A stretch of DNA of 64,000 bases, taken from the sequence record MT446423.1; one strand, written 5' to 3'. Below, piece after piece: positions 3,863-63,394 of the stretch. The position numbers and the translations under genes were made by a program. This DNA is from Escherichia virus TH58. Numbering within the stretch: position 1 is the first letter of the stretch; every line of letters starts with the position of its first letter. The notes under the pieces were generated by a model. It did not search any database and was not told the origin of the DNA. It worked only from the letters and a program-made list of their open reading frames with translations.

Positions 3863-3891
3863 TTTACATAAGGATGATGGTGTGTTACTAT
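3863..3891 (+). promoter_or_regulatory. Early promoter (GTTTAC -35, TACTAT -10) inside inverted repeat AGGATGA/TCATCCT
   Basis: GTTTAC at 3863-3868, 17-nt spacer, TACTAT at 3886-3891; inverted repeat flanks the -10 element. Confidence 0.5.
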
Positions 3892-3926
3892 CATCCTATC
3901 AAATAAACAACCAAATGGAACCTAAA

Positions 3927-4190
3927 ATGAAAACTTTCAACGAATTCATCTCAGAATCGTCTGGTGTGAAAATTAACAAAGCGGTTAATCAGGTTATTGC
4001 TGATATTCTTAATTTGTATAACATTGACTTAACTCCGCATATCACGCTTGGTAACAAACGAAACTTTTTTATATTTGACACATCCGAACTTGATGAAAAC
4101 CAGTTCAATAACATTCAACGTTTTGCGAATGATAAAGGTCTTCGACACGAGCCTGGCGGCTATAAAAAATACGCAATATATTTGAAATAA
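3927..4190 (+). CDS. Internal-protein-like ORF with capsid targeting sequence (IPI position)
   Basis: Starts MKTFNEFISE, matching the T4 IP capsid targeting signature MKTYQEFIAE; sits at the ipI position between 57B and the tRNAs. Confidence 0.55.
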   Translation: MKTFNEFISESSGVKINKAVNQVIADILNLYNIDLTPHITLGNKRNFFIFDTSELDENQFNNIQRFANDKGLRHEPGGYKKYAIYLK

Positions 4191-4192
4191 AG

Positions 4193-4222
4193 GTATACAA
4201 ACCTATAGGGATATGTTATAGT
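4193..4222 (+). promoter_or_regulatory. Early promoter variant (GTATAC -35, TATAGT -10) with flanking inverted repeat
   Basis: Motif ...GGGATATGTTATAGTAGTCCTATC, shared with several other intergenic sites. Confidence 0.45.
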
Positions 4223-4259
4223 AGTCCTATCAAAACAAATGAGTAAATGGAGAAATAAA

Positions 4260-4445
4260 ATGAAACGCGCTGAACTGATTCGTAATGTTGCTGTAGTAAT
4301 TGCTTCAGTAGCTTTTAGTTTTTCGATGTTTGTAGGATTCATTTGTGGACTACTGACAACAACAGAAAATTCTATCTCATTGGTAGTAGCATTTCTAATC
4401 GGCTTAATCGCTATCGTTATGGATAAAATTGCAAAAGGTGAGTAA
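4260..4445 (+). CDS. Small membrane protein
   Basis: ATG 4260 with GGAG RBS; hydrophobic stretch VAVVIASVAFSFSMFVGFICGLL. Confidence 0.45.
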   Translation: MKRAELIRNVAVVIASVAFSFSMFVGFICGLLTTTENSISLVVAFLIGLIAIVMDKIAKGE

Positions 4446-4446
4446 A

Positions 4447-4809
4447 ATGAAATATCATGTATATGCGGATTTTGAAGCAAATCCTTCTAAAGACCCTGAT
4501 TGTCGTTTGATACGCGAACCATTTGATTCAGCAGCTCAAGCATGGGCTTGGATTAAATCTAAATCGCCTGGTTATATGTTCTTTGAAGTAGTCGATGACA
4601 ATGGTACACTGCATCCAGAACCTACAGAAACTATTAATTTCCTTCTGTTTGCTGGTTACGACTGTTATCCTCTTGGTGGTATTGACGACCTTGTTGCTAC
4701 AGGAAAAACCGTTGAGGCTCTTCGCGAAATTTATAAAAACGCAGAAGAAAATTTTGACTGGTATCATATTGTTGATGCTCACACCTTTGAAGTGGTGGAA
4801 CACTCATGA
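4447..4809 (+). CDS. Hypothetical protein
   Basis: ATG 4447 after AAGGTGAG; 120 aa. Confidence 0.55.
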   Translation: MKYHVYADFEANPSKDPDCRLIREPFDSAAQAWAWIKSKSPGYMFFEVVDDNGTLHPEPTETINFLLFAGYDCYPLGGIDDLVATGKTVEALREIYKNAEENFDWYHIVDAHTFEVVEHS

Positions 4810-5096
4810 TTCTTTATGCTAAAGTAAAATCTGTTGAGAATGGATATGAAAGCGATCGACGTGCAGCTAAAGCACTAGTCGATGACTATGGTATTTTGAC
4901 CCACTTTGAGGTTGAAAAGGTTTACGTCGACCGTTCATCTTCACAGGTTAAATTACTTTGGGAAGACCGCAAATTTAATAGTGTGAACTTTGATTTCTTT
5001 ATTGAAACAGAAAAAGGCCCTCTTGAATATGATATTTTCAAGAATCCTTTGAAATTACGTTGCATTGAATATAATTACATTAATATGGTACGGTGA
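4806..5096 (+). CDS. Hypothetical protein
   Basis: Start overlaps upstream stop (ATGA coupling); 96 aa. Confidence 0.5.
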   Translation: MILYAKVKSVENGYESDRRAAKALVDDYGILTHFEVEKVYVDRSSSQVKLLWEDRKFNSVNFDFFIETEKGPLEYDIFKNPLKLRCIEYNYINMVR

Positions 5097-5100
5097 GTAA

Positions 5101-5616
5101 ATGAATATTTGTTTAGGCAGTACAATTCCTAAAGGTTACGTAATTGATGTCACTACTTGGGAAAATGATGGCGACAATTATAAAACCAAAACATTATTTG
5201 GTGTAGAAGAGCATGAGCTCCAACAGTTTAAATATCTCTTGAAGAAATTTAAGAGTCGCCATTCTAGCACTAAAGCTGAACGTTACTGTGGTAATACACC
5301 ATTCAGTGATTGCTCGCTTTTAATCTATGAATACTTGGTTGAAGGACTGTTCTCAGACCAGCTTTATCCAGAATTCATTAAAAAGGTCTTTGATATTGAA
5401 GTCGACCTCGGTAATAAATCTGAAGAAGACGAATCACGTGTATTTGACCTGTTCCGTGAGAATGGATATTTGGTATCAGAAGGTCTCACTGATATTCTTG
5501 GCCATGCTTCTGAATATTATGATTATGATTTCTTGCGTGTAGTTGAACGTGTTGAATTCGCTTATATTGAAGAAGAAATTGTTTTGCCGACTGTTAAAAT
5601 GATTGATTTGCTTTAA
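5101..5616 (+). CDS. Hypothetical acidic protein
   Basis: 171 aa ORF in the operon frame series. Confidence 0.55.
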   Translation: MNICLGSTIPKGYVIDVTTWENDGDNYKTKTLFGVEEHELQQFKYLLKKFKSRHSSTKAERYCGNTPFSDCSLLIYEYLVEGLFSDQLYPEFIKKVFDIEVDLGNKSEEDESRVFDLFRENGYLVSEGLTDILGHASEYYDYDFLRVVERVEFAYIEEEIVLPTVKMIDLL

Positions 5617-5695
5617 GAATTATGTGTTATTATTAATTCATACCCTCTATTACCAAAGGTGCTCTAAAGTGCCTTTCATAATAGAAAGTTATTTA

Positions 5696-5769
5696 GGCCC
5701 TGTAGCTCAATGGTTAGCAGCAGTCCCCTCATAAGGGAAAGGTTACCAGTTCGAATCTGGTCTGGGCCA
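5696..5769 (+). tRNA. tRNA with CAU anticodon (Met or Ile-type)
   Basis: Hand-folded cloverleaf: acceptor GGCCCTG/CTGGGCC (one T-T mismatch), T-arm ACCAG-TTCGAATC-TGGT, anticodon loop CTCATAA; no encoded CCA. Confidence 0.65.
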
Positions 5770-5775
5770 TATATT

Positions 5776-5852
<77 letters not shown>

Positions 5853-5870
5853 ACTTCAAATGAGGAAAAT

Positions 5871-6522: not shown

Positions 6523-6554
6523 GCCCCTTCCGAAAGGTTGGGGCTTTTTTTTTT
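6523..6554 (+). terminator. Rho-independent terminator
   Basis: GCCCCTTCCGAAAGGTTGGGGC hairpin followed by T10. Confidence 0.8.
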
Positions 6555-7061: not shown

Positions 7062-7067
7062 TAGAAT

Positions 7068-7095: not shown

Positions 7096-7184
7096 GTATC
7101 TAGGGCATAAAAATATTTCATAAAGATGTTTACTTCTTCTAAGGACATGATACTATAGACTTATCAACCACATAGGAAAATGTT

Positions 7185-7688
7185 ATGAGTCTTTATACTG
7201 AACTGAATAAAAAATCTGAAGAATCTGCTGAAACTATTTTTAAAAACGTGCAAAAACGTATTTTAGAAAAGATGTATAACGCTGCATCTAAAGGTGAAAA
7301 ATCTTGCCGGTTCCCGATGAGGTGTTCCTCCGATTTATGCGCAAATACTATTGAATGGCTGGAAAGTGAAGGTCTTACGGTAGAGAAAAACCCGGCGACT
7401 TCTATTGACAGCGAATCATATATTAGTATTTCTTGGGATAAATCAAGGGTAGAAGAGAAAGATGGTGATTGGGTTGTAGATGTTAAAACTTCTGATGGTG
7501 GACGTTCTGTTGAAGTTTCAGCTGTAGTTAAAGGTACCCACGAACAAAGGACTTGGGGTTGGGGTGGTGAAGAAAAAGAAATTGTTCTTAGTGTGATTGC
7601 CAGGTCAACTAGTAATAAAATTGCACAAAGCATCATTGACGCTGCAATTGCTGAAGCAGAAAAAATTTGCAAAATTAAAAATAAATGA
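7185..7688 (+). CDS. Hypothetical protein
   Basis: 167 aa, RBS AGGAAAA; bracketed by a terminator upstream and a promoter downstream. Confidence 0.55.
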   Translation: MSLYTELNKKSEESAETIFKNVQKRILEKMYNAASKGEKSCRFPMRCSSDLCANTIEWLESEGLTVEKNPATSIDSESYISISWDKSRVEEKDGDWVVDVKTSDGGRSVEVSAVVKGTHEQRTWGWGGEEKEIVLSVIARSTSNKIAQSIIDAAIAEAEKICKIKNK

Positions 7689-7745
7689 TGTACAAACGCC
7701 AAGGATGGTGATATGATTACTCCACCAACAAATGAGGAAAACAAA

Positions 7746-7994
7746 ATGTTTAAGTCTGATATCGAACAAGCTAAAGAAATCGCCTCAGAATACTTTGGTT
7801 CATTCTTACGTCTTTTTGGAGAAATTCCTGAATTTAATTCTGCATCAGAATCTGCGGAAGCTTTAAAGGCCATTGAAAATATTATTTTGGAAGACCTTAA
7901 ATCTTTCGACGGTTCTAATCTTTCGGCACTTCCTCGTATAATCGATATCCATGTTCTGGATAAAATGGAAGAGATTATTAATTCGTACAAATAA
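7746..7994 (+). CDS. Hypothetical acidic protein
   Basis: ATG 7746 with GAGGAAA RBS; the track start at 7713 lies inside the promoter-like cassette. Confidence 0.45.
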   Translation: MFKSDIEQAKEIASEYFGSFLRLFGEIPEFNSASESAEALKAIENIILEDLKSFDGSNLSALPRIIDIHVLDKMEEIINSYK

Positions 7995-8024
7995 GTGTAC
8001 AAACTCTTGAGAGCAGAGTATAAT
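7995..8024 (+). promoter_or_regulatory. Early promoter inside hairpin GAGAGC...GCTCTC (cassette repeated at 40344)
   Basis: ACAAACTCTTGAGAGCAGAGTATAATGCTCTC; near-identical copy at 40344-40380. Confidence 0.5.
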
Positions 8025-8066
8025 GCTCTCGTTGGATAATAAAACCACCAATTGAAAGGTAATAAT

Positions 8067-8660
8067 ATGAACACACTAAAGAAACTTGTTGAATTCATCC
8101 GCACTAAACTGGGTACTGCTATGGCTAAAAATCTGACTGTCGAAGAACAGTATAACGCAGCCGCAGATAAGTTGATTACCCAAATCAAAGAACTAAAAAC
8201 GGCTTCTGTTAAATCTATTAATGAAGAAAAACGTATTCGCGAACTTGCTAATGAAAAGAACAAGCAAGCTGCTTCTAAGGAACGTGAAATTCGTAAGCTC
8301 CTGGCTGAAGGACAAGATGTTACCATGCATGCTAAGCTTGGTCTTCTGTATCGTCGAACTGCCGAACAACTTAATACAAAAGCTGCCGGGTATGCCGCTA
8401 TGCGAATTGAAATTGCTCGTAAGGTGGTTGAACTTGATGATGCTCGTCAGAATCTGGCAATCAAACTCGAATACATTCGTGAAACTCGAGCAGCTAATGC
8501 CCTTGGTATCTCTACGGCTGATGATGTAATTGAAATCGCTGCACTGACTAAGGTTGATATCGAAGACACTCTGACTCGTGTTGAAACGTTCAATGGCACT
8601 CCAACCGGTGTCGAAACCACTTCTGCTGATGTACAAGAATATATTAACTCTTTGAAATAA
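8067..8660 (+). CDS. Coiled-coil protein, function unknown
   Basis: ATG 8067 after AAAGG; heptad-rich, K/E-rich sequence; 197 aa. Confidence 0.5.
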
Positions 8661-10805: not shown

Positions 10806-10835
10806 GTTTACAACAAGATAGGGCTATGTTATAGT
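10806..10835 (+). promoter_or_regulatory. Early promoter GTTTAC / TATAGT with inverted repeat GGACTAT...TAGTCC
   Basis: GTTTAC 10806-10811, 18-nt spacer, TATAGT. Confidence 0.5.
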
Positions 10836-10863
10836 AGTCCTATCAAATTAAATGGAGTCCACA

Positions 10864-11103
10864 ATGATTTATTACGAAAGTGTTGGAACCAAAGTGGTTG
10901 GTAAAACCATTACTCGTGAAAAGTTTGCTAAGATATTCGATATGCGTTATAAAAAATCTGAACACAAAGGCATTCGATTCGAAGATGCGCACTGTACAAT
11001 TTGCCCTTATAATGAAGACATAAATGGTACAATCGTTCCATTGGTAGAGGCTTCACACGATGACCTCTGGGATGAATATGATATCGCATGTCGTGAAATT
11101 TAA
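10864..11103 (+). CDS. Hypothetical protein
   Basis: ATG 10864 after GGAG; 79 aa. Confidence 0.45.
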   Translation: MIYYESVGTKVVGKTITREKFAKIFDMRYKKSEHKGIRFEDAHCTICPYNEDINGTIVPLVEASHDDLWDEYDIACREI

Positions 11104-12100: not shown

Positions 12101-12130
12101 GTTTACAACATGATAGGACTATGTTATAGT
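12101..12130 (+). promoter_or_regulatory. Early promoter GTTTAC / TATAGT with inverted repeat
   Basis: GTTTACAACATGATAGGACTATGTTATAGTAGTCCTAT. Confidence 0.5.
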
Positions 12131-12158
12131 AGTCCTATTAAAACATGAGGAGAATATT

Positions 12159-12464
12159 ATGAAATTAGGCGAAACCAACCGAATTGGTCTTTTAACAATA
12201 TTTGCATCACCTTTTTACGCAGCTCTTTCTGTTGCAGTATTACAAAAGGCTTACGATATGGATGGTGTTCCTGGTTTTGTATTCTTATCGCCGTTTTTGC
12301 TATTCGTTGGAGCATTGTTATTATATGCCACGACTAGTTTCGACCATAATGTCTGGGTCAATTATAAATGTAAATTGTCTGAAGAAGAACACGCGGAAGC
12401 TCGTAAAAAAGCTATTGAATCTACCAATCTAGAAAATTTCATTAAAGAATGTCGAGGAAAATAA
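12159..12464 (+). CDS. Small membrane protein ending ENFIKECRGK
   Basis: Two TM helices; conserved C-terminal tail. Confidence 0.55.
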   Translation: MKLGETNRIGLLTIFASPFYAALSVAVLQKAYDMDGVPGFVFLSPFLLFVGALLLYATTSFDHNVWVNYKCKLSEEEHAEARKKAIESTNLENFIKECRGK

Positions 12465-15616: not shown

Positions 15617-15646
15617 GTTTACGCTTAAGTATTAATATGGTATAAT
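15617..15646 (+). promoter_or_regulatory. Early promoter (GTTTAC, TATAAT)
   Basis: GTTTAC 15617-15622, 18-nt spacer, TATAAT 15641-15646. Confidence 0.55.
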
Positions 15647-15676
15647 TACTCTATCAAAACAAACAAGGAAACAAAA

Positions 15677-15979
15677 ATGAAAACATATCAAGAATTTATT
15701 ACTGAAGCGCGAGTGAGTGCAGGTAAATTAGAAGCCGCTATAAATAAAAAGGCCTATTCATTTCACGATTTGTCCGATAAAGACCGTAAGAAACTTGTAA
15801 GCCTTTATATTGACAAAGAGCGTATTCTCGCTCTTCCTGGCGCTAATGAAGGTAAACAGGCCAAGCCTTTGAATGCTGTCGAAAAGAAAATTGATAACTT
15901 TGCTTCTAAATTCGGTATGTCTATGGATGACCTTCAGCAAGCGGCTATCGAAGCAGCTAAAGTAATTAAAGGTAAATAA
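15677..15979 (+). CDS. ipII: Internal protein II-like
   Basis: Starts MKTYQEFITEA (capsid targeting sequence); 100 aa as T4 IPII; follows denV. Confidence 0.65.
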   Translation: MKTYQEFITEARVSAGKLEAAINKKAYSFHDLSDKDRKKLVSLYIDKERILALPGANEGKQAKPLNAVEKKIDNFASKFGMSMDDLQQAAIEAAKVIKGK

Positions 15980-16061
15980 CAGTTTACTTTCTCCTAGAAT
16001 TGTGATAGTATATTCATAATTACTTGGATGGGTAAAATGACTCAATGAAAAAATTTTAATG

Positions 16062-18666: not shown

Positions 18667-18695
18667 GTTTACTTCTCCTCTAGTTGTGTTACTAT
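18667..18695 (+). promoter_or_regulatory. Early promoter inside 10-bp inverted repeat CCTCTAGTTG/CAACTAGAGG
   Basis: GTTTAC 18667-18672, TACTAT 18690-18695; palindrome flanks the -10. Confidence 0.5.
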
Positions 18696-18723
18696 AGAAC
18701 TGTCAACTAGAGGAGAAATCAAA

Positions 18724-19182
18724 ATGACTATCAATTCAGACGTTTTTATCCGCCGTAATAAACTCCGTCGAATCTTTGAAACGGAGTTCCGCAAAATAAA
18801 TGCCGGTATAAAAGATGCTGCAAAGTCTCTTGGACTACCAGGCTTTCATATCAAGTATTCTCAACATCTCTTAGATCGTGCCATCCAGAGAGAAATAGAT
18901 GAGAACTACGTTTTTGAATTATTTCATAAAGTAAAAAATCATGTTAAAGAAGTTGCAGAATTTTTATCAATGCCGGCACGTCCGGATGTTGATGAAGATT
19001 TTGACGAAGGTGTCGAATATCGCCCAGGCCGTTTAGAAATAACTGATGGAAATCTTTGGTTAGGACTTACAGTTTGTCGCGAAAATCCGGCATTCAAAAT
19101 GAAGACTCTTCAATGCAGAATGGCTATTATTAACAGTAAACGATTACCAGGAAAAGCTTCTAAAGCAGTGATTAAAATCTAG
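18724..19182 (+). CDS. regB: RegB endoribonuclease
   Basis: MTINSDVFIRRNKLRR...SQHLLDRAIQREIDE...LPGKASKAVIK matches T4 RegB; 152 aa. Confidence 0.9.
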   Translation: MTINSDVFIRRNKLRRIFETEFRKINAGIKDAAKSLGLPGFHIKYSQHLLDRAIQREIDENYVFELFHKVKNHVKEVAEFLSMPARPDVDEDFDEGVEYRPGRLEITDGNLWLGLTVCRENPAFKMKTLQCRMAIINSKRLPGKASKAVIKI

Positions 19183-22920: not shown

Positions 22921-22950
22921 GTTTACTTCTCCTCAGGTTGTGTTATAGTA
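22921..22950 (+). promoter_or_regulatory. Early promoter GTTTAC / TATAGT
   Basis: GTTTAC 22921-22926, 18-nt spacer, TATAGT 22945-22950. Confidence 0.5.
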
Positions 22951-22976
22951 GTCCTTACTTAATAGAGGAGAATGTT

Positions 22977-23156
22977 ATGACACGTAAAGAAAAAATTTCT
23001 AAGTTAATGTTTTTGATTGAAGAGTATGCTAATGCGGTGTCTGATTGGGAAAATGCTCATGGTTGTGAAGATGGAGACATCGACATTAACAGAGCTATGA
23101 AAAAGATGGCTGAAGCCCACACCGAATTGCAAATGTATGTTAACGAGATTATGTGA
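22977..23156 (+). CDS. Small hypothetical protein
   Basis: ATG 22977 after AGAGGAG; 59 aa. Confidence 0.45.
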   Translation: MTRKEKISKLMFLIEEYANAVSDWENAHGCEDGDIDINRAMKKMAEAHTELQMYVNEIM

Positions 23157-23419: not shown

Positions 23420-23635
23420 ATGTTATATGACCCAAGCGGTTGTTCTGAAGATGGTGTGATTGTTCTGGAGCCTGAGCATCCAGTTGGTGATGTATATCGC
23501 ACCGTTGAAGTATGCGAATGTAATTTCGTTGAAGGTAATACTGGCGGAATTTCCATTGAGCAAGATGATGATGTTATTTACCTGGATGCAAGCCAAGTTG
23601 AAGAGCTTTATCAACATTTAAAACACAATCGGTAG
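23420..23635 (+). CDS. Small protein (paralog B; MLYDPSGCSEDGVIVL)
   Basis: GAGGAAA RBS; N-terminus homologous to 23164 ORF. Confidence 0.5.
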   Translation: MLYDPSGCSEDGVIVLEPEHPVGDVYRTVEVCECNFVEGNTGGISIEQDDDVIYLDASQVEELYQHLKHNR

Positions 23636-23664
23636 TTTACGTTTTGGTAGGACTATGATATAGT
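23635..23664 (+). promoter_or_regulatory. Early promoter GTTTAC / TATAGT with inverted repeat TAGGACTAT...TAATCCTA
   Basis: GTTTAC 23635-23640; TATAGT 23659-23664. Confidence 0.5.
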
Positions 23665-23692
23665 AATCCTACCAAAACAAATGGAGAACAAA

Positions 23693-23803
23693 ATGAAACT
23701 TTTGCTTATCGCTTATGTTGTAGTACAATACAATTATCCGATGTTTACTTATAACATGGTAAACGGCATAGTGAATCTTATTGAAACGAGTATGGTAAAA
23801 TGA
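23693..23803 (+). CDS. Small hydrophobic peptide (36 aa)
   Basis: GGAG RBS then ATG; MKLLLIAYVVVQYNYPMF...; below the track length cut-off. Confidence 0.3.
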   Translation: MKLLLIAYVVVQYNYPMFTYNMVNGIVNLIETSMVK

Positions 23804-26051: not shown

Positions 26052-26080
26052 GTGTACATGCTTTTAGGATATGTTATTAT
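26052..26080 (+). promoter_or_regulatory. Early promoter variant (GTGTAC, TATTAT) with AGGTCTAT-type hairpin
   Basis: GTGTAC 26052-26057, TATTAT 26075-26080. Confidence 0.4.
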
Positions 26081-26118
26081 AGACCTATCGAAACGAAATG
26101 AGTAAATTGGAGAATAAA

Positions 26119-27099
26119 ATGTTCAACGTTCAAATCAAAAAAGGTATCTATCGTAATAACGAAATCTCTGGTTCTTATGTTGCCACAAAGACATGGTTCC
26201 CGGCAAAGCTTAATCCTGAATGTTCCCACTTAGGTGACGGTAAAATTTTCGTTATGATCGATGGTTCTGAACGTGGAGTATGGGTCTTCAAATCAGACAT
26301 CGTAATGGAAGGAGTTGAGACGTCACCAGTTGCAGTTGTTGAAAGCACTGAAGATATGAAAACTCGTATCAACAAACGCTTTAAAGTAATGAACATGATG
26401 ACGAACGGCATTATCGATGGCAAAATTCGTTCACTCATTATTTCAGGTGCAGCTGGTATTGGTAAGACGTATTCTCTGGATAAAGCACTTAATAATGCTA
26501 ATGATAATGGTTTCATCAAATACAAAAGCATTAATGGTAAAATCTCCGGTATTGGCCTTTACGAACAACTTTGGCTCAACCGTGATGCAGACAGCGTTCT
26601 CTTAATCGACGACGTTGACGTATTCTCGGATATGGACATCTTGAACCTTCTTAAAGCAGCATTAGATACCGGTGATAAACGCAAAGTTTGTTGGAGCACT
26701 GCGTCATCTTATCTCGATGATAAGGGTATTGATAAAGAATTTGAGTTTGAAGGTACTATCGTTTTCATTACAAACGTTGATATCGATAAAGAGTTAGAAC
26801 GTGGTTCGAAACTTGCTCCACACCTTCAAGCTTTAGTATCTCGTTCAGTGTATCTCGACCTTGGAGTACACTCTAATGAAGAGATTATGGTTCGAGTTGA
26901 AGATGTAATATTATCTACTGACATGATGCAGAAACGTGGTCTGACGGATGCAGAAACGTATAAAGCATTGTCCTGGATGAAGGCTAACGTATCTCGTCTT
27001 CGCAATGTATCATTACGTACGGCTCTTTATGTAGCAGATTTTATTTCAACTGATAAAGATGGTTGGGAAGAAATCTCGGAAGTTACTTTACTGAAATAA
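26119..27099 (+). CDS. AAA-type ATPase
   Basis: Walker A GAAGIGKT, Walker B VLLIDDVD; ATG 26119 after GGAG. Confidence 0.6.
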   Translation: MFNVQIKKGIYRNNEISGSYVATKTWFPAKLNPECSHLGDGKIFVMIDGSERGVWVFKSDIVMEGVETSPVAVVESTEDMKTRINKRFKVMNMMTNGIIDGKIRSLIISGAAGIGKTYSLDKALNNANDNGFIKYKSINGKISGIGLYEQLWLNRDADSVLLIDDVDVFSDMDILNLLKAALDTGDKRKVCWSTASSYLDDKGIDKEFEFEGTIVFITNVDIDKELERGSKLAPHLQALVSRSVYLDLGVHSNEEIMVRVEDVILSTDMMQKRGLTDAETYKALSWMKANVSRLRNVSLRTALYVADFISTDKDGWEEISEVTLLK

Positions 27100-27237
27100 G
27101 CTTATAGGAAGTTCTGAGGTAACAAAAGCCATAAAGATGAATAATCATATGGCTTACCTCAAAGAAGGACACCAGGAACCTACTGAGGGCATAGAAATAT
27201 TTAAAAATAATGATGTACAAATCAAAGAGGATATGTT

Positions 27238-27525
27238 ATGGATTTTATGCAAAAAATTAAAGCCGCAGTCGAACTGTATGCTCATCGTATGGTTAGTTCT
27301 ACGATGCAATATAGCGAGGATGTTCGCCAGGACTCTTCCTTGAAAGGAAAAACTAAAGCCTTAATTACCTTAGATCGTTTGCAAAAGAATGCCATAGAGA
27401 TGCTCCAGTACGACAAGGATGCATATAAGAAAGAACAGGAAGAGAAACTTAAATCTGAAAAATTACAGAAAATTCCGAAATCGGTTTGGTTCAGTGGAAA
27501 AAATACCGAAAAAAGTTTCTTTTAG
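27238..27525 (+). CDS. Hypothetical basic protein
   Basis: AGAGGA RBS; 95 aa. Confidence 0.5.
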   Translation: MDFMQKIKAAVELYAHRMVSSTMQYSEDVRQDSSLKGKTKALITLDRLQKNAIEMLQYDKDAYKKEQEEKLKSEKLQKIPKSVWFSGKNTEKSFF

Positions 27526-27527
27526 TT

Positions 27528-27556
27528 GTTTACAAGGTCTATGGTTATGTTATTAT
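27528..27556 (+). promoter_or_regulatory. Early promoter GTTTAC / TATTAT with hairpin AGGTCTAT...ATAGACCT
   Basis: GTTTAC 27528-27533, 17-nt spacer, TATTAT 27551-27556. Confidence 0.5.
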
Positions 27557-27583
27557 AGACCTATCAACTACTGGAGGTAAAAC

Positions 27584-28112
27584 ATGAACGCTAAAGATAT
27601 TTTCAACCTGGTAAATTATAACGACGGTAAATTTAAATCTGAAGCACAAAGCAAGTTCTTTAACGACGTTGCTTATGGTAACGAGATTACCGTGGACGGA
27701 GGTCAGATTTTCAAATCTCGCTGGAATTGGATTGCTATCATCGATTCAGTTGGAATTGTGGAAGTCTACAAAAACACTAGCAAAAAAACGTACATTATTC
27801 TGGTCTCGTGAAACTAACGAGCAGTACAAAAAGGATAAAGCATCTCGTTTATCCAAAGTAACCCAGGAAGATATCGAGTTTATCAAGAAAGATATCGAGA
27901 TGTACGAAAATTTAATCGCTGAAGACCAGGCAGTACTCGATAAGTTTGATGAAATTAAAGCTTCTCGTGAAATCCCTGACTTCATGAAAGAAACAGTAAA
28001 CGAACGATACGCTCTCACTTCAGAACGTATTGCAAACTATACAAAACAGAAAGCAGAACGTATTAGTACTCTTCGGAAATTTGAAGAACGTTTAAAGACG
28101 GTTCACGCATAA
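27584..28112 (+). CDS. Hypothetical protein, apparently split by a +1 frame change at an A7 tract
   Basis: ORF 27584..27811 (GGAGG RBS) and ORF continuing to 28112 overlap across the A run 27782-27788; the downstream segment has no credible own start. Confidence 0.4.
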
Positions 28113-28174: not shown

Positions 28175-29170
28175 ATGAGCATTACATCTGATGCGGTAAA
28201 ACATGAAATTAACGGTTTATGTGCTTCACAGATTAAAGTGTGGTTTAAAGACCATAATGATCGCAGAGCACTTAATTATGAGCAAATTGCTATCCAAGTT
28301 CATCAATTACTGACTAGTAAATTTGATTTTCATATGCCATCTGAAATCTATACTAATCTACCGCGAGCGCTTATTAAAGCGTGTAAAGGTTACGGAAAAT
28401 CAATGGCCGATGGAATCTTCAGCGCGCTGAATAAACTTAACGTTCTATCGATGATTAACTCTAACAACATCCTGCGTAATCTAGGACGTACTGATTTGTT
28501 CGGTCGTGAACAGTGTAAAATGCCTTTGAAATGGATTGTTGCTCATCTTAACGAGAACCAAACACGTTTTCTGGCCGTATCAGCACGCTTACAAATGGGC
28601 CTAGATCGTCAGATGAACTTTAAAACTCATCCACGTTATTCAGGTTCAACAGACTTTTATAAATGTGAGCTTCAAAAGGTTGCAGGTAAAACTGTCTTAG
28701 TAGTTCGTGTAACGTTTGAAGGACGACGTCAAGGATATTTTGACCTAATCGGCTCCGGTCTTAAACATTGTGGATTTATTGTCGAAGTTGATATCAAGCG
28801 AGACGGCATTGGATACCGTATTGGATATGTTTGTACTCTTAAAGAAGAGATTTCAGGACCAGCACCAGGACTAAAAGACGTTAGATATAAAGACGAGCTC
28901 GTTGAAGAAATAAAAGAAGTTGAATATGATATCAACCAAGAAGATGCTCTTAAAGACCTTATTGATGAACTAAACCAAGACGTTATTCCGGTTCAGAAAT
29001 TTGAATCAAAACATGCTGAGCAAATCAAATACTTTGAAGCTTTGATTAACGAACTTAATGTAACTATTCAACAGACTGACGACGAAATCTCACGATTAGC
29101 AGGCTTAAACGGTAAAAATAAAACAGAACGAGCTAATCTTATTCAAGTAGTAAAACTTCTTAAGGAATGA
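28175..29170 (+). CDS. Hypothetical protein
   Basis: 331 aa; GAGGAAA RBS. Confidence 0.55.
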   Translation: MSITSDAVKHEINGLCASQIKVWFKDHNDRRALNYEQIAIQVHQLLTSKFDFHMPSEIYTNLPRALIKACKGYGKSMADGIFSALNKLNVLSMINSNNILRNLGRTDLFGREQCKMPLKWIVAHLNENQTRFLAVSARLQMGLDRQMNFKTHPRYSGSTDFYKCELQKVAGKTVLVVRVTFEGRRQGYFDLIGSGLKHCGFIVEVDIKRDGIGYRIGYVCTLKEEISGPAPGLKDVRYKDELVEEIKEVEYDINQEDALKDLIDELNQDVIPVQKFESKHAEQIKYFEALINELNVTIQQTDDEISRLAGLNGKNKTERANLIQVVKLLKE

Positions 29171-29199
29171 TGTACAACCAAGGATGGTTGGAGTATAAT
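29171..29199 (+). promoter_or_regulatory. Early promoter cassette ACAACCAAGGATGGTTGGAGTATAAT (hairpin CCAACC/GGTTGG)
   Basis: Near-identical cassette repeated at 30163 and in variant form at 7690. Confidence 0.5.
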
Positions 29200-29225
29200 A
29201 AATTTTTCAACATGAGGAATATAAA

Positions 29226-30158
29226 ATGGCTTCTATTACACGTAGAGAACTTATCAAAGAATTTACCTCGAACGCATATACCCCAGGTCCTAATCCTATC
29301 CGTATGCCTGTAAAGACTCCTGAAGAGATTGAGGAAGTCTGTTCATATTATGGGATTACTTCTCGTAAGTTTACTCAATTTGAATGCGTTACTAACACAC
29401 CCGTTAAAGAGTTCATTAAAAATGGTGAGTTCAGCCGTTTATTAGCCAAACAGAAACTTCGTAATTTTTGTATCGGCGGCTACGGACAATATTTTGCTAA
29501 ACAGTTCAGAAATAACCTTAACAATCTGATGGCCATTGCTTCTCGTATTCGTCCTCAAGCAATTAACATGAAACATTTGAAATATACTTACGATAAGTTA
29601 GAAATCATGGTTATCAGTGAGAATGAGTTCACTCTTACGTATAAACCTAAGAATGATAACGTTGCTCGTGTATTCCACCAAGCGTTGGAAGTTTTAGGTG
29701 ATAATATCCACCAGATTAAAGCAATTTATTCTCGTGAGCTTAATATTATCGACCCTATCAAGAATAAGGGCCATATCGCTATCCAGGCTCGTGTATCTGT
29801 TGGTAAAAAGGTTCCTGCTCCATGGTGGCACAAAGACTCTGAATACTATCAAAATCTTAAAAAGGAAAATGCAACGTTCGAAGCGTCAATTATTGTTGCC
29901 CCAACTATCGGTAAGATTAATGCAGCTTCAGCACAACCTGTTATGTTTAATGGCACGCCGTCGACTAAACTGGAAATCTCTAATGGTCTTCTTCCTGCCG
30001 AAGATTACTATTATAATCAAATCAAAGCCACTGTGGACCAACTGTCTGTTGAACTTGACAAAGCACAAGCTAAACTTCGTGATGCTCAACAAGTAGTTAC
30101 CAAGCTCCAGTTGCAGTACTCTAAACTTTTTACCGCAATGAATGCGTTAAAATCATAA
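29226..30158 (+). CDS. Hypothetical protein with C-terminal coiled coil
   Basis: 310 aa; GAGGAA RBS. Confidence 0.55.
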   Translation: MASITRRELIKEFTSNAYTPGPNPIRMPVKTPEEIEEVCSYYGITSRKFTQFECVTNTPVKEFIKNGEFSRLLAKQKLRNFCIGGYGQYFAKQFRNNLNNLMAIASRIRPQAINMKHLKYTYDKLEIMVISENEFTLTYKPKNDNVARVFHQALEVLGDNIHQIKAIYSRELNIIDPIKNKGHIAIQARVSVGKKVPAPWWHKDSEYYQNLKKENATFEASIIVAPTIGKINAASAQPVMFNGTPSTKLEISNGLLPAEDYYYNQIKATVDQLSVELDKAQAKLRDAQQVVTKLQLQYSKLFTAMNALKS

Positions 30159-30162: not shown

Positions 30163-30192
30163 GTTTACAACCAAGGATGGTTGGAGTATAAT
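30163..30192 (+). promoter_or_regulatory. Early promoter cassette (GTTTAC...TATAAT), repeat of 29171 cassette
   Basis: GTTTACAACCAAGGATGGTTGGAGTATAAT. Confidence 0.55.
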
Positions 30193-30220
30193 CTTTCTAT
30201 CTTAACGAGAGGAAAATATT

Positions 30221-31171
30221 ATGACACGTTCACATTACATTGATTATTTTGCAGGTCTTATCGCTAACGTTCATGCCCAACGTGCTTCTGGTTCATTAGG
30301 ATTTGATGTTCCACACCGAGTTGTAGTAAGTGGTATTCTTCGCGATTTTTGTACATACACAGGCCAAGAAAATCATATCTGTAAAGATACTCAGAATGCG
30401 TATTCTCATTCATTAGGGACACTGCTTCAATGGTTCAAACGTTCTCGTTTATTATCTTCTACTGTAGCTCGCGATAACATTAAAAACTTTATGAAGCCTA
30501 GCTTTATTAAATCTGTGACATCTAAAACCGATTTGGTTGAATTCACTATTGTTAATGATGTTAAAAAGACTCATTTGGCTGATTGGTTATCTACCATTCC
30601 TGAAACTAAATTCGCTGATAAATTTGCTTGTGAATTCAATAACCAAGTGAATATGCTTTTTAAACATTCTCGTAAATTATTCACTGGCGGTGATGGCCGT
30701 ACAAATAAAGTTCATGTTAAAGATTGGGTTACTGCAGTATTCAAACCAACTGGTAATGGTAACGCATCATTGTCAATTGATATCCAGGTTCCTTATTACT
30801 ACTCACGTAATCTCGGTACCATGAAAGCCGAAGAAATTAATAAGCACAACAAAACCGTTCGTTCGCTGTCTTATAAACTTCGTATGATGTTACAGACTAT
30901 GGATGTTGTTGAAATGTTCAGCGAAACCGAAGATAACGGTTCAATGTTATTCAGTTCTCGTATTCAAATTAAGCTGAAGAACCCTAACGAGTATAAGCCT
31001 AAGCCTATTAAAGAGCCTAAAGCAGAAAAAGTTGATAACTTAAGAGAAGAACGCGAATATCTCAAATCTCGTCTGAAAGAAGTCGAAGCCCAGATTGCAG
31101 AACAAACTAAATCATTAAAAGCTCTGAATGCAAAAGCTGATGGTTTACGAAATGCCATTGAGGTGTTATAA
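30221..31171 (+). CDS. Hypothetical protein with C-terminal coiled coil
   Basis: 316 aa; GAGAGGAAA RBS. Confidence 0.55.
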   Translation: MTRSHYIDYFAGLIANVHAQRASGSLGFDVPHRVVVSGILRDFCTYTGQENHICKDTQNAYSHSLGTLLQWFKRSRLLSSTVARDNIKNFMKPSFIKSVTSKTDLVEFTIVNDVKKTHLADWLSTIPETKFADKFACEFNNQVNMLFKHSRKLFTGGDGRTNKVHVKDWVTAVFKPTGNGNASLSIDIQVPYYYSRNLGTMKAEEINKHNKTVRSLSYKLRMMLQTMDVVEMFSETEDNGSMLFSSRIQIKLKNPNEYKPKPIKEPKAEKVDNLREEREYLKSRLKEVEAQIAEQTKSLKALNAKADGLRNAIEVL

Positions 31172-32489: not shown

Positions 32490-32617
32490 ACCGTGGTATT
32501 CGGCTCGATGGGAGACAGTCGAGCCAGACGTCGAAACAGTTTACAATGACGAAGAAACGTGTTATGATGAACCTTCAATAAATGAATTAATTGATATGGA
32601 AATGGGAAGAGATTATT

Positions 32618-38830: not shown

Positions 38831-38971
38831 TCCCATTTCTAATATAATCCATTGGAATCTTCATTTCACTATCTCCTTGTGCCCCTCTCAAATCAAAAAT
38901 ATTTTCATAAAACAGTTTACATCCTCAATAGATGTGTTAAGATTAAACCATCTACTATAGAGGAAAACAAA

Positions 38972-39154
38972 ATGACAATTGAAGATAAAGAAATTAAGGT
39001 CGACCAGTACTATTCTGTCAACGGTAATGCAGTACAGATAACCAGAGTTTCAAGCCTGGATGTTTGGTACCGTTCGATCAAACATCCAGAAATTGGTGAA
39101 ATGCTTTGTGACCGTAGTATCTTCTGTTCAATTGCGAAGGAAATTAAGCCATGA
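38972..39154 (+). CDS. Small hypothetical protein
   Basis: ATG 38972 after AGAGGAAA; upstream GTTTAC promoter at 38915. Confidence 0.45.
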   Translation: MTIEDKEIKVDQYYSVNGNAVQITRVSSLDVWYRSIKHPEIGEMLCDRSIFCSIAKEIKP

Positions 39155-40342: not shown

Positions 40343-40343
40343 T

Positions 40344-40372
40344 ATAACAAACTCTTGAGAGCAGAGTATAAT
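40344..40372 (+). promoter_or_regulatory. Early promoter cassette, repeat of the 7995 cassette
   Basis: ACAAACTCTTGAGAGCAGAGTATAAT identical to 7998-8024. Confidence 0.5.
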
Positions 40373-40411
40373 TCTCTCTCATTGGATAATAAAATAACCG
40401 AGGAAAATAAT

Positions 40412-40744
40412 ATGTCTACTAAAATCAAAAACGTAGTTAATTCTTTCGCTTTCGATAAAGTTGTTGCTCTTCTGGAATCCGGCAATATTGTTACTCCTCA
40501 AGTTCTTGACGCGTGGGAATTCCGTCTTTATGAAAACATGCAAAAACACGATCAGAAAATTGGACGTAATTCTATTCGTGAAATTCTAGTACAATATATT
40601 CTTTCTGAATTTGACGTTGCTGCATTTGGTGTTGAATCTAAAGCTTATCAGAAACATGAAATCTCTGAAAAGACTATCCGTCGTATGAAAAATCAACGTA
40701 AGAAAAAATTCGTTGACCTGAAAATTGTTAAGGCGGTAAAATGA
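40412..40744 (+). CDS. Hypothetical protein
   Basis: ATG 40412 after GAGGAAAA; 110 aa. Confidence 0.5.
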   Translation: MSTKIKNVVNSFAFDKVVALLESGNIVTPQVLDAWEFRLYENMQKHDQKIGRNSIREILVQYILSEFDVAAFGVESKAYQKHEISEKTIRRMKNQRKKKFVDLKIVKAVK

Positions 40745-61819: not shown

Positions 61820-61838
61820 GGAGACTTCGGTCTCCTTT
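61820..61838 (+). terminator. Putative terminator hairpin
   Basis: GGAGACTTCGGTCTCC followed by TTT. Confidence 0.4.
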
Positions 61839-61842
61839 CGGG

Positions 61843-61872
61843 GTTTACATCTTCCTCTAGGCATGGTATGAT
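61843..61872 (+). promoter_or_regulatory. Early promoter GTTTAC / TATGAT
   Basis: GTTTAC 61843-61848, 18-nt spacer, TATGAT 61867-61872. Confidence 0.5.
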
Positions 61873-61901
61873 AGACTTACACCAACCAAGAGGAGAACAA
61901 A

Positions 61902-62219
61902 ATGAAAACCATCGATTGTAAAGCAGAATTTAAGATTTTTTATCACGGTTCAAGTAGTTCAGCTAACATCGAAAACATGCTTTGCCCTCCTGAAGAAACA
62001 GGAGTTCTGTCTGAAACTGGACGTAAGAAAAACTTGGATCGTGTATTCTTTACTGAAGATATCGGTTTAGCAAAGATTTATGCAGGACGAGCAGCACGCT
62101 CTTATGGAGGTGAACCACGTCTCTATCGAGTAATTTCTCCGGTGGACGTAGTTCAAATGAATAATACTAAAGGTGCTACAGTTTATCACGCTGAATGGGC
62201 ATTTTGCGAGGAAATATGA
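61902..62219 (+). CDS. Hypothetical protein with F-Y-H-G-S motif
   Basis: 105 aa; AAGAGGAG RBS; FYHGSSSS is reminiscent of H-Y-E class ADP-ribosyltransferases but the protein is short. Confidence 0.45.
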   Translation: MKTIDCKAEFKIFYHGSSSSANIENMLCPPEETGVLSETGRKKNLDRVFFTEDIGLAKIYAGRAARSYGGEPRLYRVISPVDVVQMNNTKGATVYHAEWAFCEEI

Positions 62220-62407
62220 GCAAATTAACTAAAGTTACTTTTATCGGTTGGTTTAAAAGCGGCGAGATGTTCACTAAAGATATCATGTTATCAGGTGATC
62301 GCGAAGAAATCGAGTGGGTTGCGGTACAACTTGCTGAAGTGAACAACGCATTAGTTAAAGCATTTGTTAATGACGAGAAAGTTTTTGAAGCTGATTTCAG
62401 AGGATAA
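62216..62407 (+). CDS. dmd: Dmd (discriminator of mRNA degradation; antitoxin against RnlA/LsoA)
   Basis: MSKLTKVTFIGWFKSGEMFTKDIM...EVNNALVKAFVNDEKVFEADFRG resembles T4 Dmd from memory; 63 aa. Confidence 0.65.
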   Translation: MSKLTKVTFIGWFKSGEMFTKDIMLSGDREEIEWVAVQLAEVNNALVKAFVNDEKVFEADFRG

Positions 62408-62408
62408 T

Positions 62409-62621
62409 ATGTATTCAACTGTGTTTAAACCATCAACATACGAATTTGCATCAACTACACAATGGAAAGCTCTTATTCTGGAAGGATGGGAACTAATGAT
62501 GGACTGTGAAGCATCTGAAAAGTTTCCACACGGCAAAGTGGACTTCGTTAAATTTGCTGTACGTCCGACTAAACGACAGATTCGTCAAGAAAAACGCAAA
62601 TTTCGCAAAAGTTTAAAATAA
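62409..62621 (+). CDS. Small hypothetical protein with basic tail
   Basis: ATG 62409 after AGAGGA; 70 aa. Confidence 0.45.
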   Translation: MYSTVFKPSTYEFASTTQWKALILEGWELMMDCEASEKFPHGKVDFVKFAVRPTKRQIRQEKRKFRKSLK

Positions 62622-62623
62622 CT

Positions 62624-62653
62624 GTTTACAAGCATCGCATACTGTGTTACTAT
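62624..62653 (+). promoter_or_regulatory. Early promoter GTTTAC / TACTAT
   Basis: GTTTAC 62624-62629, TACTAT about 18 nt downstream. Confidence 0.45.
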
Positions 62654-62681
62654 CTTTCTATCAACTACAGAGGAAATTGAA

Positions 62682-63050
62682 ATGAAAAAATTAATCGCTT
62701 TAGCAATGGTATTTGGATTAACCGGATGTGGTGCCCATGGCTTTATCCCTAATAACGTTGGCCAACTGATTTACAATCCGAATGTTAAACAGTATGACCA
62801 ACCTAAAGTTGAAGTGGAAGACCCGGTTACTGTAGGTAATCGAATGATTCAAGCTGATGCTCATGCTCAACGTTATCGTGACTCTGATACTGTAGCATTG
62901 TCAAAAGAACAACGCGTTAAAGAACATTGTCTACAGGCTACTGAAATCGCATTCATTCGCTATGTTGAAACAACTGGTAAAGAGCCTACCCAGAAACAAA
63001 TCGCGAATAACTACGTCCAGTGTATTGAACGTTTAAACAAATTTAATTAA
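62682..63050 (+). CDS. Lipoprotein
   Basis: Signal peptide with lipobox LTGC; 122 aa. Confidence 0.55.
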   Translation: MKKLIALAMVFGLTGCGAHGFIPNNVGQLIYNPNVKQYDQPKVEVEDPVTVGNRMIQADAHAQRYRDSDTVALSKEQRVKEHCLQATEIAFIRYVETTGKEPTQKQIANNYVQCIERLNKFN

Positions 63051-63111
63051 TTGGTTTACACCAAAGTTAAAATAAGATATTATAAACATAACAAATCAAG
63101 AGGAAATTAAC

Positions 63112-63360
63112 ATGGAATTATTCGTAGCTAGTTCAGTAGCAGTTTTAATCGCAGGTATTGGTTCAATCATCATTTACATGTTGCCTTGGGTAATCGCACT
63201 TATTCGTGGCACAAAAAGCACAACAGCAATCTTCTTTGTATCTTTACTCTTTAACTGGACGATGATTGGTTGGATTGGAACTTTAATTTGGTCTATCGTT
63301 GCCGAAAAGAAATCTGCTCAGCAGCCTCAACAAGTAATTATTATTCGCGAAAAAGAATAA
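63112..63360 (+). CDS. Small two-TM membrane protein (possible superinfection-immunity-like)
   Basis: 82 aa; two long hydrophobic helices; AAGAGGAAA RBS. Confidence 0.5.
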   Translation: MELFVASSVAVLIAGIGSIIIYMLPWVIALIRGTKSTTAIFFVSLLFNWTMIGWIGTLIWSIVAEKKSAQQPQQVIIIREKE

Positions 63361-63364
63361 ACTT

Positions 63365-63394
63365 GTTTACATTATAGATGGACTATGGTATAGT
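63365..63394 (+). promoter_or_regulatory. Early promoter GTTTAC / TATAGT with GGACTAT...TAGTCC hairpin
   Basis: GTTTACATTATAGATGGACTATGGTATAGTAGTCCTATC. Confidence 0.5.

Follow-up and report, generated by a model that had tools for sequence, protein, structure and literature searches.

Early-promoter cassettes, probably of the promoter early stem-loop type, in the early region of Escherichia virus TH58

The DNA considered here, 64,000 nucleotides of Escherichia virus TH58 (record MT446423.1; called the window below), raises the question of what the GTTTAC-type promoters are that recur ahead of its genes, and why many of them enclose inverted repeats. By sequence comparison the window is about 97% identical to coliphages of the JS09/phi25-307 type, genus Mosigvirus (the RB69 group), and the recurring units are probably promoter early stem-loop (PeSL) cassettes of a T-even-group phage. 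This type of element is already known from other T4-like phages, so that the finding is real but largely ordinary. What is added here, as judged from sequence comparisons, is evidence of selection on the stems, of a single fixed register that they take around the TGn motif and the -10 box, and of pairing between a subset of them and the Shine-Dalgarno (SD) region.

Promoter cassettes and their stem layouts

The initial annotation had described GTTTAC-type -35 boxes with TATAGT, TATAAT or TATTAT -10 boxes recurring between 3863 and 63394 and had called for a motif search. A plain scan (GTTTAC with at most one mismatch, 16-18 nucleotides (nt), TATAAT with at most one mismatch) finds 26 sites on the + strand of the window, which is its early-gene strand, and 9 weak ones on the - strand. 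With a weight matrix trained on 13 intergenic seeds, for which the - strand served as control, 31 sites on + and 0 on - score at least 10 bits, and 28 against 0 score at least 12 bits. The homologous regions of JS09, RB69, SQ17 and T4 give 25-31 sites on + and 0 on - at this latter threshold. A generic sigma-70 scan with the TTGACA consensus was not discriminating (83 sites, against 66 +/- 9 in shuffled sequence), and the specific signal is therefore the T4-type early promoter motif. The intergenic sites number 25 and span 3862 to 63365, in good agreement with the annotation, TACTAT occurring as a further -10 variant.

These sites share the consensus GTTTAC-N17/18-TAtaaT with TGn, the promoter pointing toward the downstream gene, and form a fixed unit of 60-70 nt: an A-rich UP tract, the -35 box GTTTAC, a spacer of 17-18 nt, TGn, the -10 box TAtaaT, a leader of about 20 nt, an SD and an ATG. 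In most cassettes the distance from the start of the -35 box to the SD-preceded ATG is 56-60 nt, and 14 of the 25 begin no more than 13 nt past the upstream stop codon (the usual range being 0-13 nt). The 21 nt located 5' of the -35 box have an A+T content of 0.74 and an A content of 0.42 (window, 0.63 and 0.33), and the T and the G of TGn are each conserved in at least 90% of cassettes. All the sequence features of a T4-type early promoter are thereby present (UP tract, GTTTAC-type -35, TGn, -10, position upstream of early genes and T4 orthology), and motif, orientation and position agree with the "über" UP/-35/TGn/-10 early promoters of T4 (Hinton 2010, PMC2988021). Positional orthologues among T4 promoters exist for the regB, tRNA.4, nrdC.8 and other cassettes; that of the regB cassette is the promoter region of T4 regB, which the literature describes as a typical early promoter. 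From their motif and their orthology to T4 promoters such as PregB, we infer that the sites fire as sigma-70 early promoters.

The stems adopt three layouts. In class A (3862, 7995, 10806, 12101, 23635, 27528, 40343 and 63365, with decayed stems at 4193 and 26052), the spacer forms the 5' arm, TGn and the first five bases of the -10 box form the loop, and the last -10 base together with the discriminator, as far as about the start site, forms the 3' arm. In a spacer-internal type (29170 and 30163), both arms, CCAACC/GGTTGG, lie between -35 and -10. In class B (18667, which is the regB cassette, 22921, 38915 and 61843, and perhaps 15982), the spacer holds an anti-SD sequence, for example TTCTCCTCTAGTT, that pairs with a downstream SD region such as AACTAGAGGAGAA; these helices enclose loops of 25-30 nt, end in the SD and span about 40 nt. 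The sites are listed below, with matrix score in bits, minimum free energy (MFE) and folding z score as applicable; breakpoints are ends of homology with relatives.

3862..3929, +: cassette 5' of an internal-protein-like gene; class A stem AGGATGATGGT/ACTATCATCCT around the -10; 23.1 bits, MFE -17.1, z -3.27; left edge of an ipI-type gene swap relative to JS09 and RB69 (breakpoint 3954)
4193..4262, +: cassette 5' of tRNA.4; class A stem decayed here and intact in relatives (ATAGGACTA/TAGTCCTAT in JS09, ATAGGGTA/TACCCTAT in SQ17 and T4); 28.5 bits, z +0.49; breakpoints 4208, 4249 and 4265
7128..7187, +: cassette with no significant stem; 25.4 bits, z +1.36; JS09 breakpoint at the 5' edge (7122), RB69 breakpoint at the ATG (7179)
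7688..7748, +: weak cassette, -35 ATGTAC, no significant stem; 12.4 bits, z +0.77
7995..8069, +: cassette 5' of e.6; class A GAGAGCA/TGCTCTC with the -10 in the loop, near-identical to 40343; z -1.95; breakpoint 7989
10806..10866, +: class A cassette, GATAGGGCTA/TAGTCCTATC; 35.1 bits, MFE -16.1, z -2.93
12101..12161, +: class A cassette, TGATAGGACTA/TAGTCCTATTA; indel site of the JS09_048 module; 35.8 bits, z -4.80
15617..15679, +: cassette 5' of an internal-protein-like gene, no stem; 24.7 bits, z -0.28; breakpoints 15597 and 15706 in all three relatives
15982..16050, +: cassette of the internal-protein (IP) locus; stem AATTGTGA/TCATAATT plus an outer helix; 14.5 bits, MFE -15.9, z -2.78; T4 counterpart GAATTGTGA/TCACAATTC
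18667..18726, +: regB cassette, class B; spacer TTCTCCTCTAGTT with AACTAGAGGAGAA covering the SD; MFE -22.1, z -5.03
22921..22979, +: class B cassette 5' of mobD.2a; TTCTCCTC with GAGGAGAA; 28.7 bits, z -1.76; breakpoint 22882, 39 nt upstream
23635..23695, +: class A cassette, TTTTGGTAGGACTA/TAATCCTACCAAAA; MFE -19.4, z -5.45; T4 orthologue GTTGACAAGATTA/TAATCTTGTCAAC
26052..26121, +: cassette 5' of nrdC.10, decayed stem; 29.9 bits, z +1.68; breakpoints 26005, 26059 and 26123
27213..27240, +: marginal promoter-like site, ATGTAC ... TATGGA, of doubtful membership; 10.6 bits; an SD-ATG was looked for and none found
27528..27586, +: nrdC.8 cassette, class A, AGGTCTATGGT/ATTATAGACCT; 30.0 bits, MFE -13.6
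29170..29228, +: cassette with spacer-internal CCAACC/GGTTGG and weak -35 ATGTAC; z -1.67
30163..30223, +: cassette with spacer-internal CCAACC/GGTTGG; z -1.39; T4 orthologue AGCC/GGCT
31143..31203, +: promoter-like site without a stem, overlapping the upstream nrdC gene at its 3' end; 12.6 bits; conserved in relatives, but coding sequence
32539..32620, +: weak promoter-like site, no stem; 12.3 bits, MFE -8.0
38915..38974, +: class B cassette 5' of 55.6; TCCTC with GAGGA, inner helix TAGATG/CATCTA; 24.1 bits, z -2.93; an SQ17 deletion begins at its ATG (38975)
40343..40414, +: copy of the 7995 cassette with degenerate -35 TATAAC, 5' of 55.2; z -1.42; stem kept with changes in the JS09, RB69 and SQ17 orthologues (for example GGGAGC/GCTCTC and GAGAGA/TCTCTC)
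61820..61904, +: canonical terminator GGAGAC-TTCG-GTCTCC-TTT (61820-61838), followed by a class B cassette from 61843; 30.7 bits, z -2.67
62624..62684, +: cassette 5' of imm.1, no stem; 18.6 bits, MFE -4.1; an SQ17 deletion ends 28 nt upstream (62596)
63054..63114, +: cassette 5' of imm, no stem; 26.6 bits, MFE -1.2
63365..63426, +: class A cassette 5' of sp, GGACTA/TAGTCC; 30.4 bits, MFE -11.9, z -1.38

All four inverted repeats named in the initial annotation are found where it had placed them: TAGGACTA/TAGTCCTA at 10806, 12101, 23635 and 63365, AGGTCTAT/ATAGACCT at 27528, CCAACC/GGTTGG at 29170 and 30163, and GAGAGC/GCTCTC at 7995 and 40343. The two pairs it had singled out as near-identical are so indeed, 7995 and 40343 having 26 consecutive bases in common and 29170 and 30163 about 27. 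The identity is limited to a core promoter of about 30-45 nt with unrelated flanks. Tandem gene duplication was considered as the origin of the likeness between 29170 and 30163 and rejected, since the flanking nrdC proteins lack similarity and are not paralogues.

How many cassettes carry a hairpin was assessed by folding 20 of them from -35 to ATG against 200 dinucleotide shuffles each. A z score of at most -2.6 was obtained for eight of these (23635, -5.45; 18667, -5.03; 12101, -4.80; then 3862, 10806, 38915, 15982 and 61843) and a modest one of -1.4 to -2.0 for seven, the mean over the 20 being about -1.85. Inverted repeats of at least 9 pairs occur at 4 of the 25 sites, against 0.8% of random 42-nt windows. 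The remaining five folded cassettes (4193, 7128, 7688, 15617 and 26052) are no better than their shuffles, which speaks against the hairpin as an obligatory part of the cassette, and 62624 and 63054, outside this folding run, have essentially no stem. Altogether, a stem-loop lies inside or overlaps the promoter at about half to three-quarters of the sites. The earlier statement that promoters embedded in hairpins recur about 20 times thus stands for the promoters, of which there are about 25, and for structure above chance, and has to be reduced for clear hairpins to roughly half of the cassettes.

Selection on the stems

The stems are under selection and not accidental, as manifested by four independent lines of evidence: preference for the cassette's own partner, a single fixed register, compensation between orthologues and covariation at regB. 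When each spacer was paired with its own downstream partner or with those of other cassettes, class A duplexes in the window averaged -7.6 vs -4.6 kcal/mol (p <= 5e-5). In a set of 64 non-redundant cassettes drawn from five genomes, the values were -7.5 vs -4.6 for class A, -6.45 vs -5.4 for class B and -10.3 vs -6.8 for both combined (each p <= 5e-5). These data bear directly on the alternative that the hairpins are unselected copies of one palindromic ancestor, spread by duplication or gene conversion, and that their link with indels reflects nothing but intergenic breaks. The TAGGACTA family, with at least five copies in the window, is what such spreading would leave behind; the matched-versus-mismatched comparison is conservative with respect to shared ancestry and still reaches its p value.

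A second test aligned 84 unique cassettes on the -10 hexamer alone, the formal count being made on the 83 that are free of N. In the register -4:+5 around the -10 box, at least 7 of 8 pairs form in 21 of the 84 cassettes, compared with 0-4 in each of ten other registers, and this register is used by at least six unrelated stem sequences. Across the 83 cassettes, 52.5% of positions are paired in it against 26-43% when the register is slid, and none of 500 shuffles reaches the observed pairing or covariation. The sharing of one register by different stem sequences is again not expected of copies of a single ancestor.

Compensatory differences between orthologous stems were found at regB, 23635, tRNA.4 and nrdC.8; at 23635, for instance, the stem is GGTAGGACTA/TAATCCTACC in the window and GACAAGATTA/TAATCTTGTC in T4, with compensatory pairs. 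The possibility, left open by the initial annotation, that the inverted repeats are not conserved in relatives can be set aside, as the stems persist in T4 and other lineages with such compensatory changes. At regB, four lineages that differ in the inner sequence keep the helix between spacer and SD, with 89% of cells paired; 6 of its 14 pairs are changed on both sides, its covariation is 0.34 (0.125 when shuffled and at most 0.06 when slid), and 0 of 500 shuffles reach the observed pairing. These regB values are to be read with the provisos that only four independent lineages contribute and that the register was taken from the helix itself (anchored on TCCT/AGGA), a MAFFT alignment having left the helices out of register. 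The test anchored on the -10 box, made on unselected cassettes, avoids this bias of a structure-derived register.

The nrdC.8 cassette is particularly informative. Its orthologues were collected with the JS09 protein as query, because the frame is broken in the window. The downstream sequence TATAGACCTATCAACTACTGGAGGT is common to Mosigvirus and the lineage L034/35, and the partner held by the spacer is ATAGACCT in Mosigvirus, giving a class A stem, and CTACTGGAGGT in L034, giving a class B helix; T4 has yet another class B helix. The same downstream sequence thus meets spacers with different targets, which identifies the spacer as the evolving partner and counts against unselected copying. 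In the homologous region of T4, 6 of 18 early promoters are class A, 3 are class B and 9 are neither, so that the property is T-even-wide.

Gene exchange and likeness to known elements

The initial annotation had likened the cassettes to elements proposed to mediate modular gene shuffling and had suggested comparing flanking gene content among related phages. That comparison reveals genes swapped, lost and inserted at cassettes. Chained blastn alignments of the window with JS09, RB69 and SQ17 yield 53 distinct breakpoints, 17 of which fall in cassette intervals covering 4.2% of the window (p=3e-11). The enrichment holds against a gene-boundary null (p=0.003) and at the level of junctions (odds ratio (OR) 4.1, p=0.003). 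The points to be set against a role of the cassettes in shuffling are that the enrichment drops to OR 2.4 (p=0.11) among junctions with a spacer of at least 40 nt, part of the signal therefore being breakpoints that fall in intergenic DNA, and that many of the breakpoints either trace to homing endonucleases or are situated elsewhere than at cassettes. SQ17 also lacks a 4.6-kb block, 5663-10268 (tRNAs through the ORFs of the e.3 region; ORF, open reading frame), and neither end of this deletion is at a cassette, so that not all large indels use them.

Two chimeric cassettes show the exchanges at nucleotide level. In the window and in SQ17, the 5' part of cassette 61843 corresponds to the JS09/RB69 cassette of ORF041c and its 3' part to that of ORF040c, joined at the SD; as read from these sequences, ORF041c was cleanly deleted from (or inserted into) the space between two cassettes. 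The single chimeric cassette of the window and RB69 at 12101, with its junction in GT(T/G)TACAA, that is, in the -35 box, corresponds in JS09 to two cassettes that enclose a further ORF, JS09_048. A copy of this JS09_048 module of cassette, ORF and cassette (352 nt) occurs with 90.6% identity (97% for the protein) in the Tequatrovirus phiD1, a Yersinia phage, where it is located not at the ORF134c|ORF133c junction but between nrdC.11 and nrdC.10, the junction of window cassette 26052. Comparison of the genomes thus demonstrates that the cassettes behave as short dispersed homologies at which ORF modules are lost, gained and transferred from one locus or genus to another; breakpoint counts, chimeras and a module at two junctions all uphold the part in modular shuffling that had been proposed for them, with the reservation on spacer-bearing junctions already given. 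As for unselected hairpins tied to indels by intergenic breaks alone, the weakened enrichment at those junctions suits them, and the chimeric footprints and the one module at two loci do not; taken with the selection data, they leave this alternative largely refuted and very improbable.

The distribution of the cassettes is uneven. They are dense in the ipI-e-ip-vs-tk-nrdC and dmd-imm-sp regions, and a block of 21.5 kb from 40343 to 61843, devoted to replication and recombination and with genes 55, 47, 46, 45, 44, 62, regA, 43, uvsX and 41, is free of them. The two IP-like genes have an N-terminal leader, MKTxxEFI, in common (3927-3956 and 15677-15706); their homology with relatives stops 27-29 nt into the ORF, which indicates that IP swaps use the cassette plus the leader as left homology arm.

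PeSLs have been defined as an AT-rich tract, a sigma-70-type early promoter and a stem-loop, followed by the SD and ATG of the next gene, the stem-loop lying mostly between -35 and -10 or overlapping the -10; they favour hyperplastic regions, are rare in conserved core blocks and adjoin indels (PMC2839356, PMC4122927). They were published for RB49/phi1 (Arbiol et al. 2010, PMC2839356) and for PST/T4 and nt-1/KVP40 (Comeau et al. 2014, PMC4122927). The likeness seen in the initial annotation is borne out by the cassettes of the window, which have every one of these sequence-level attributes, the stem-loop in only about half to three-quarters of sites: AT-rich tract, promoter, stem-loop and SD/ATG are present, and the units are intergenic, clustered in variable regions and located beside indels that distinguish close relatives, the crossovers falling between the -10 and the SD/ATG. 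The AGGA...TCCT stems found here also fit AGNA-loop-TCNT, the stem consensus of PST/T4. Of the recombination between neighbouring PeSLs that is described as giving rise to mini-circles, the present sequences show evolutionary footprints, in the form of the chimeric cassettes. The differences are that the published RB49 stems are GGGG/CCCC and those described here are AT-rich and of T-even type; that promoter, terminator and mini-circle assays exist only for RB49/phi1, the present cassettes being known from sequence; that the RB69/Mosigvirus lineage is concerned here and RB69 is mentioned in neither paper; and that neither deals with translation or ribosomes, spacer-SD pairing and covariation being absent from their description. 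PeSL-type cassettes are thereby extended to the RB69/Mosigvirus group, and breakpoint statistics, nucleotide-level chimeric junctions, one module at two junctions in two genera, and covariation go beyond the original papers. For annotation and phage engineering, the cassettes are natural module boundaries where small early genes can be swapped while adjacent genes stay undisturbed.

Other known elements come close. In RB69, 57 early promoters that agree with the present ones in motif, orientation and position were predicted (Nolan et al. 2006, PMC1524935), in a report with 0 mentions of inverted repeats or hairpins. The elements behind the IP-locus polymorphism of T-even phages (Repoila et al. 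1994, as cited in PMC2839356) are likewise early-promoter-based, AT-rich stem-loops flanking variable IP genes, and the IP-like genes of the window (3927, 15677) are swapped between cassettes in the same manner; in that secondhand account the description is limited to two IP loci, whereas the present cassettes extend across about 40 kb of early genes.

Possible roles of the stems in RNA, and other features of the window

In all three layouts the 5' arm lies upstream of the transcription start, and consequently only a read-through RNA can form the stem, never an RNA started locally. The predicted probability that the SD is unpaired, in read-through vs locally started RNA, is 0.00 vs 0.82 at 18667, 0.00 vs 0.77 at 22921 and 0.00 vs 0.61 at 38915; across these and 61843 it is 0.00-0.03 with the upstream arm and 0.6-0.9 without it, 15982 being less clear (0.03 vs 0.25). 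The hairpins would then exert their effect in the RNA, on transcripts that read through. A class B helix would mask the SD and thereby restrict translation of the gene to RNA from its own promoter, by the logic known from e, soc and I-TevI of T4, and a class A stem would serve as a cap or attenuator for the cistron upstream. We tentatively propose that the spacers of T-even early promoters, those of T4 included, may be selected to pair in RNA with sequence just downstream, which would make each cassette an RNA switch dependent on promoter choice. Read-through transcripts would carry the hairpin and cassette-started ones would be open; the hairpin would occlude the SD (at regB also the GGAG cleaved by RegB) or cap the upstream cistron; and the spacer would evolve and could switch targets, as at nrdC.8, from the discriminator in Mosigvirus to the SD in T4 and a third lineage. 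If true, such a switch would extend the T4 rule of hairpins with an internal promoter from late to early genes and would explain the "additional regions of consensus" in T4 early promoters, which are all that Hinton 2010 (PMC2988021) mentions, their meaning not being known. The T4 reviews examined, this one included, do not describe hairpins in early promoters; an older description may exist.

In T4, hairpins that sequester the ribosome-binding site (RBS) and contain an internal promoter occur at e, soc, 25, 26, I-TevI/II/III and segB, and at mobE of Aeh1 (Edgell et al. 2010, PMC2988022): the long transcript pairs the SD, and the promoter within the hairpin yields a short transcript that lacks the 5' arm and leaves the SD free. 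In these cases a late (or middle) promoter lies within the hairpin, and the genes concerned "are all late genes", whereas in class B, predicted from sequence, the internal promoter is early and the 5' arm is its own spacer. Class B therefore follows the same logic as the T4 RBS hairpins without being a member of that set.

Two results weigh against class B as a general property of the cassettes. Sequestration of the SD is not enriched at cassette genes (5/18 vs 9/71 other genes, p=0.12), in a scan that recovered its positive controls, lysozyme e and the intron endonuclease, and within the window matched spacer-SD pairs are not significantly better than mismatched ones (p=0.09). Class B is thus a small number of individually supported helices and not a rule. 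At imperfect helix positions, G.T exceeds A.C by 12 to 4 (p=0.04), which is weakly in favour of a structure in + strand RNA, as against a cruciform or a palindrome bound by protein, the bias falling to about 9 vs 4 once same-lineage repeats are removed. The literature searched yielded no transcript-end data for this phage or T4, nor a genome-wide map of transcription start sites or 3' ends of T4. Finally, class A stems, and class B stems too, have no U-tract and none was called by a terminator scan, so that the terminator role reported for PeSLs has no sequence support here.

This last point concerns a rival that is unlikely, though it deserves to be weighed, namely that the stems are plain terminators or attenuators of the upstream gene, composite terminator-promoters of the kind put forward in the PeSL papers, with no role in translation or RNA stability. 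One RB49 PeSL stem-loop cut lacZ expression about as much as rrnB T1 (PMC2839356), the cassettes abut the upstream stop codon, and canonical terminators do stand just upstream of two cassettes, at 61820-61838 and 26008-26024. These two separate hairpins, upstream of the -35 box, are the only ones at cassettes that combine a GC-rich hairpin with a U-run and are the real terminators, whereas class A stems are followed by CAAAACAAA-type sequence without a U-run and class B helices have loops of 25-30 nt and end in the SD. As canonical intrinsic terminators, the stems were rejected on these sequence grounds.

An action of the inverted repeats on DNA, either as a cruciform or hairpin that exposes TGn and the -10 in single-stranded form and so eases promoter opening, as a substrate cut by endonuclease VII to initiate recombination or as a palindromic operator at which a dimeric regulator shuts off early promoters, is improbable, and more so than termination. 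The register is fixed to promoter elements, with a loop of exactly TGn plus the first five -10 bases; the mechanism that shuts off early promoters is described in the literature as not fully understood; and the cassettes are recombination junctions. A fixed register is nonetheless not in itself evidence of a DNA-level role, since the shortest and tightest RNA hairpin that spares the immutable TGn/-10 would adopt the same one. The diversity of the stems, with at least six unrelated sequences in one register, leaves no operator consensus and argues against a sequence-specific operator. The excess of G.T over A.C suits one-strand RNA and not a cruciform, class B helices of about 40 nt that pair with an SD have no obvious meaning in DNA, and the crossovers are placed outside the stems, in the -35 box and the SD.

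At least 138 sequence records contain most of the region. The + strand of the window begins with genes 4, 2, 3, 1, 57A, ipI, tRNA.x, e.x, e, denV, the IP locus and vs.x, continues with regB, tk, rI, mobD.x, nrdC.x, 49, nrdD and nrdG, and ends with 55.x, 55, 47, 46, 45, 44, 62, regA, 43, uvsX, 40, 41, dmd, imm and sp. An Rfam search of the whole window returned two tRNAs only, so that the cassettes match no curated RNA family; these tRNA genes lie at 5696-5769 and 5776-5849, a position with two in RB69 and eight in T4. The SD of gene e (14347) is fully paired with upstream sequence (P unpaired 0.00), apparently the classical T4 e hairpin conserved in this Mosigvirus. A group I intron interrupts nrdD at 34223-35303; missed by the whole-window search at gathering threshold, it was recognized in a local one (RF00028, 72 bits at 34223-34458) and is present in SQ17 and absent from JS09 and RB69. 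Its ORF at 34507-35277 is a GIY-YIG/NUMOD1 homing endonuclease whose SD is wholly sequestered by upstream sequence, like that of T4 I-TevII. An ORF of 276 aa at 36576-37406, between nrdD and nrdG, gives matches to NUMOD3, to I-TevI DNA-binding and, weakly, to GIY-YIG; JS09, RB69 and SQ17 lack it, and T4 has an unrelated HNH endonuclease, mobC, at this place.

The nrdC.8 frame (27584-28112) is broken near position ~27781 by one extra A in a homopolymer (A7 vs A6 in JS09), which could be a real frameshift, making nrdC.8 a pseudogene, or a sequencing error. A DUF7338 gene of 185 aa at 22320-22877, absent from all three Mosigvirus relatives compared, has its right edge 39 nt upstream of cassette 22921 and an SD of its own that is predicted to be sequestered. 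On the minus strand, an ORF of 377 aa at 7193-8326 is antisense to three + strand genes, each of which has a cassette to itself; it matches nothing in Pfam, has an unusual length for a genome of 37% GC and is probably spurious. A perfect bidirectional hairpin resembling an intrinsic terminator, GGAGGACTCCGGTCCTCC plus TTTT, is located at 8669-8686 between e.6 and e.5, a junction that carries no cassette.

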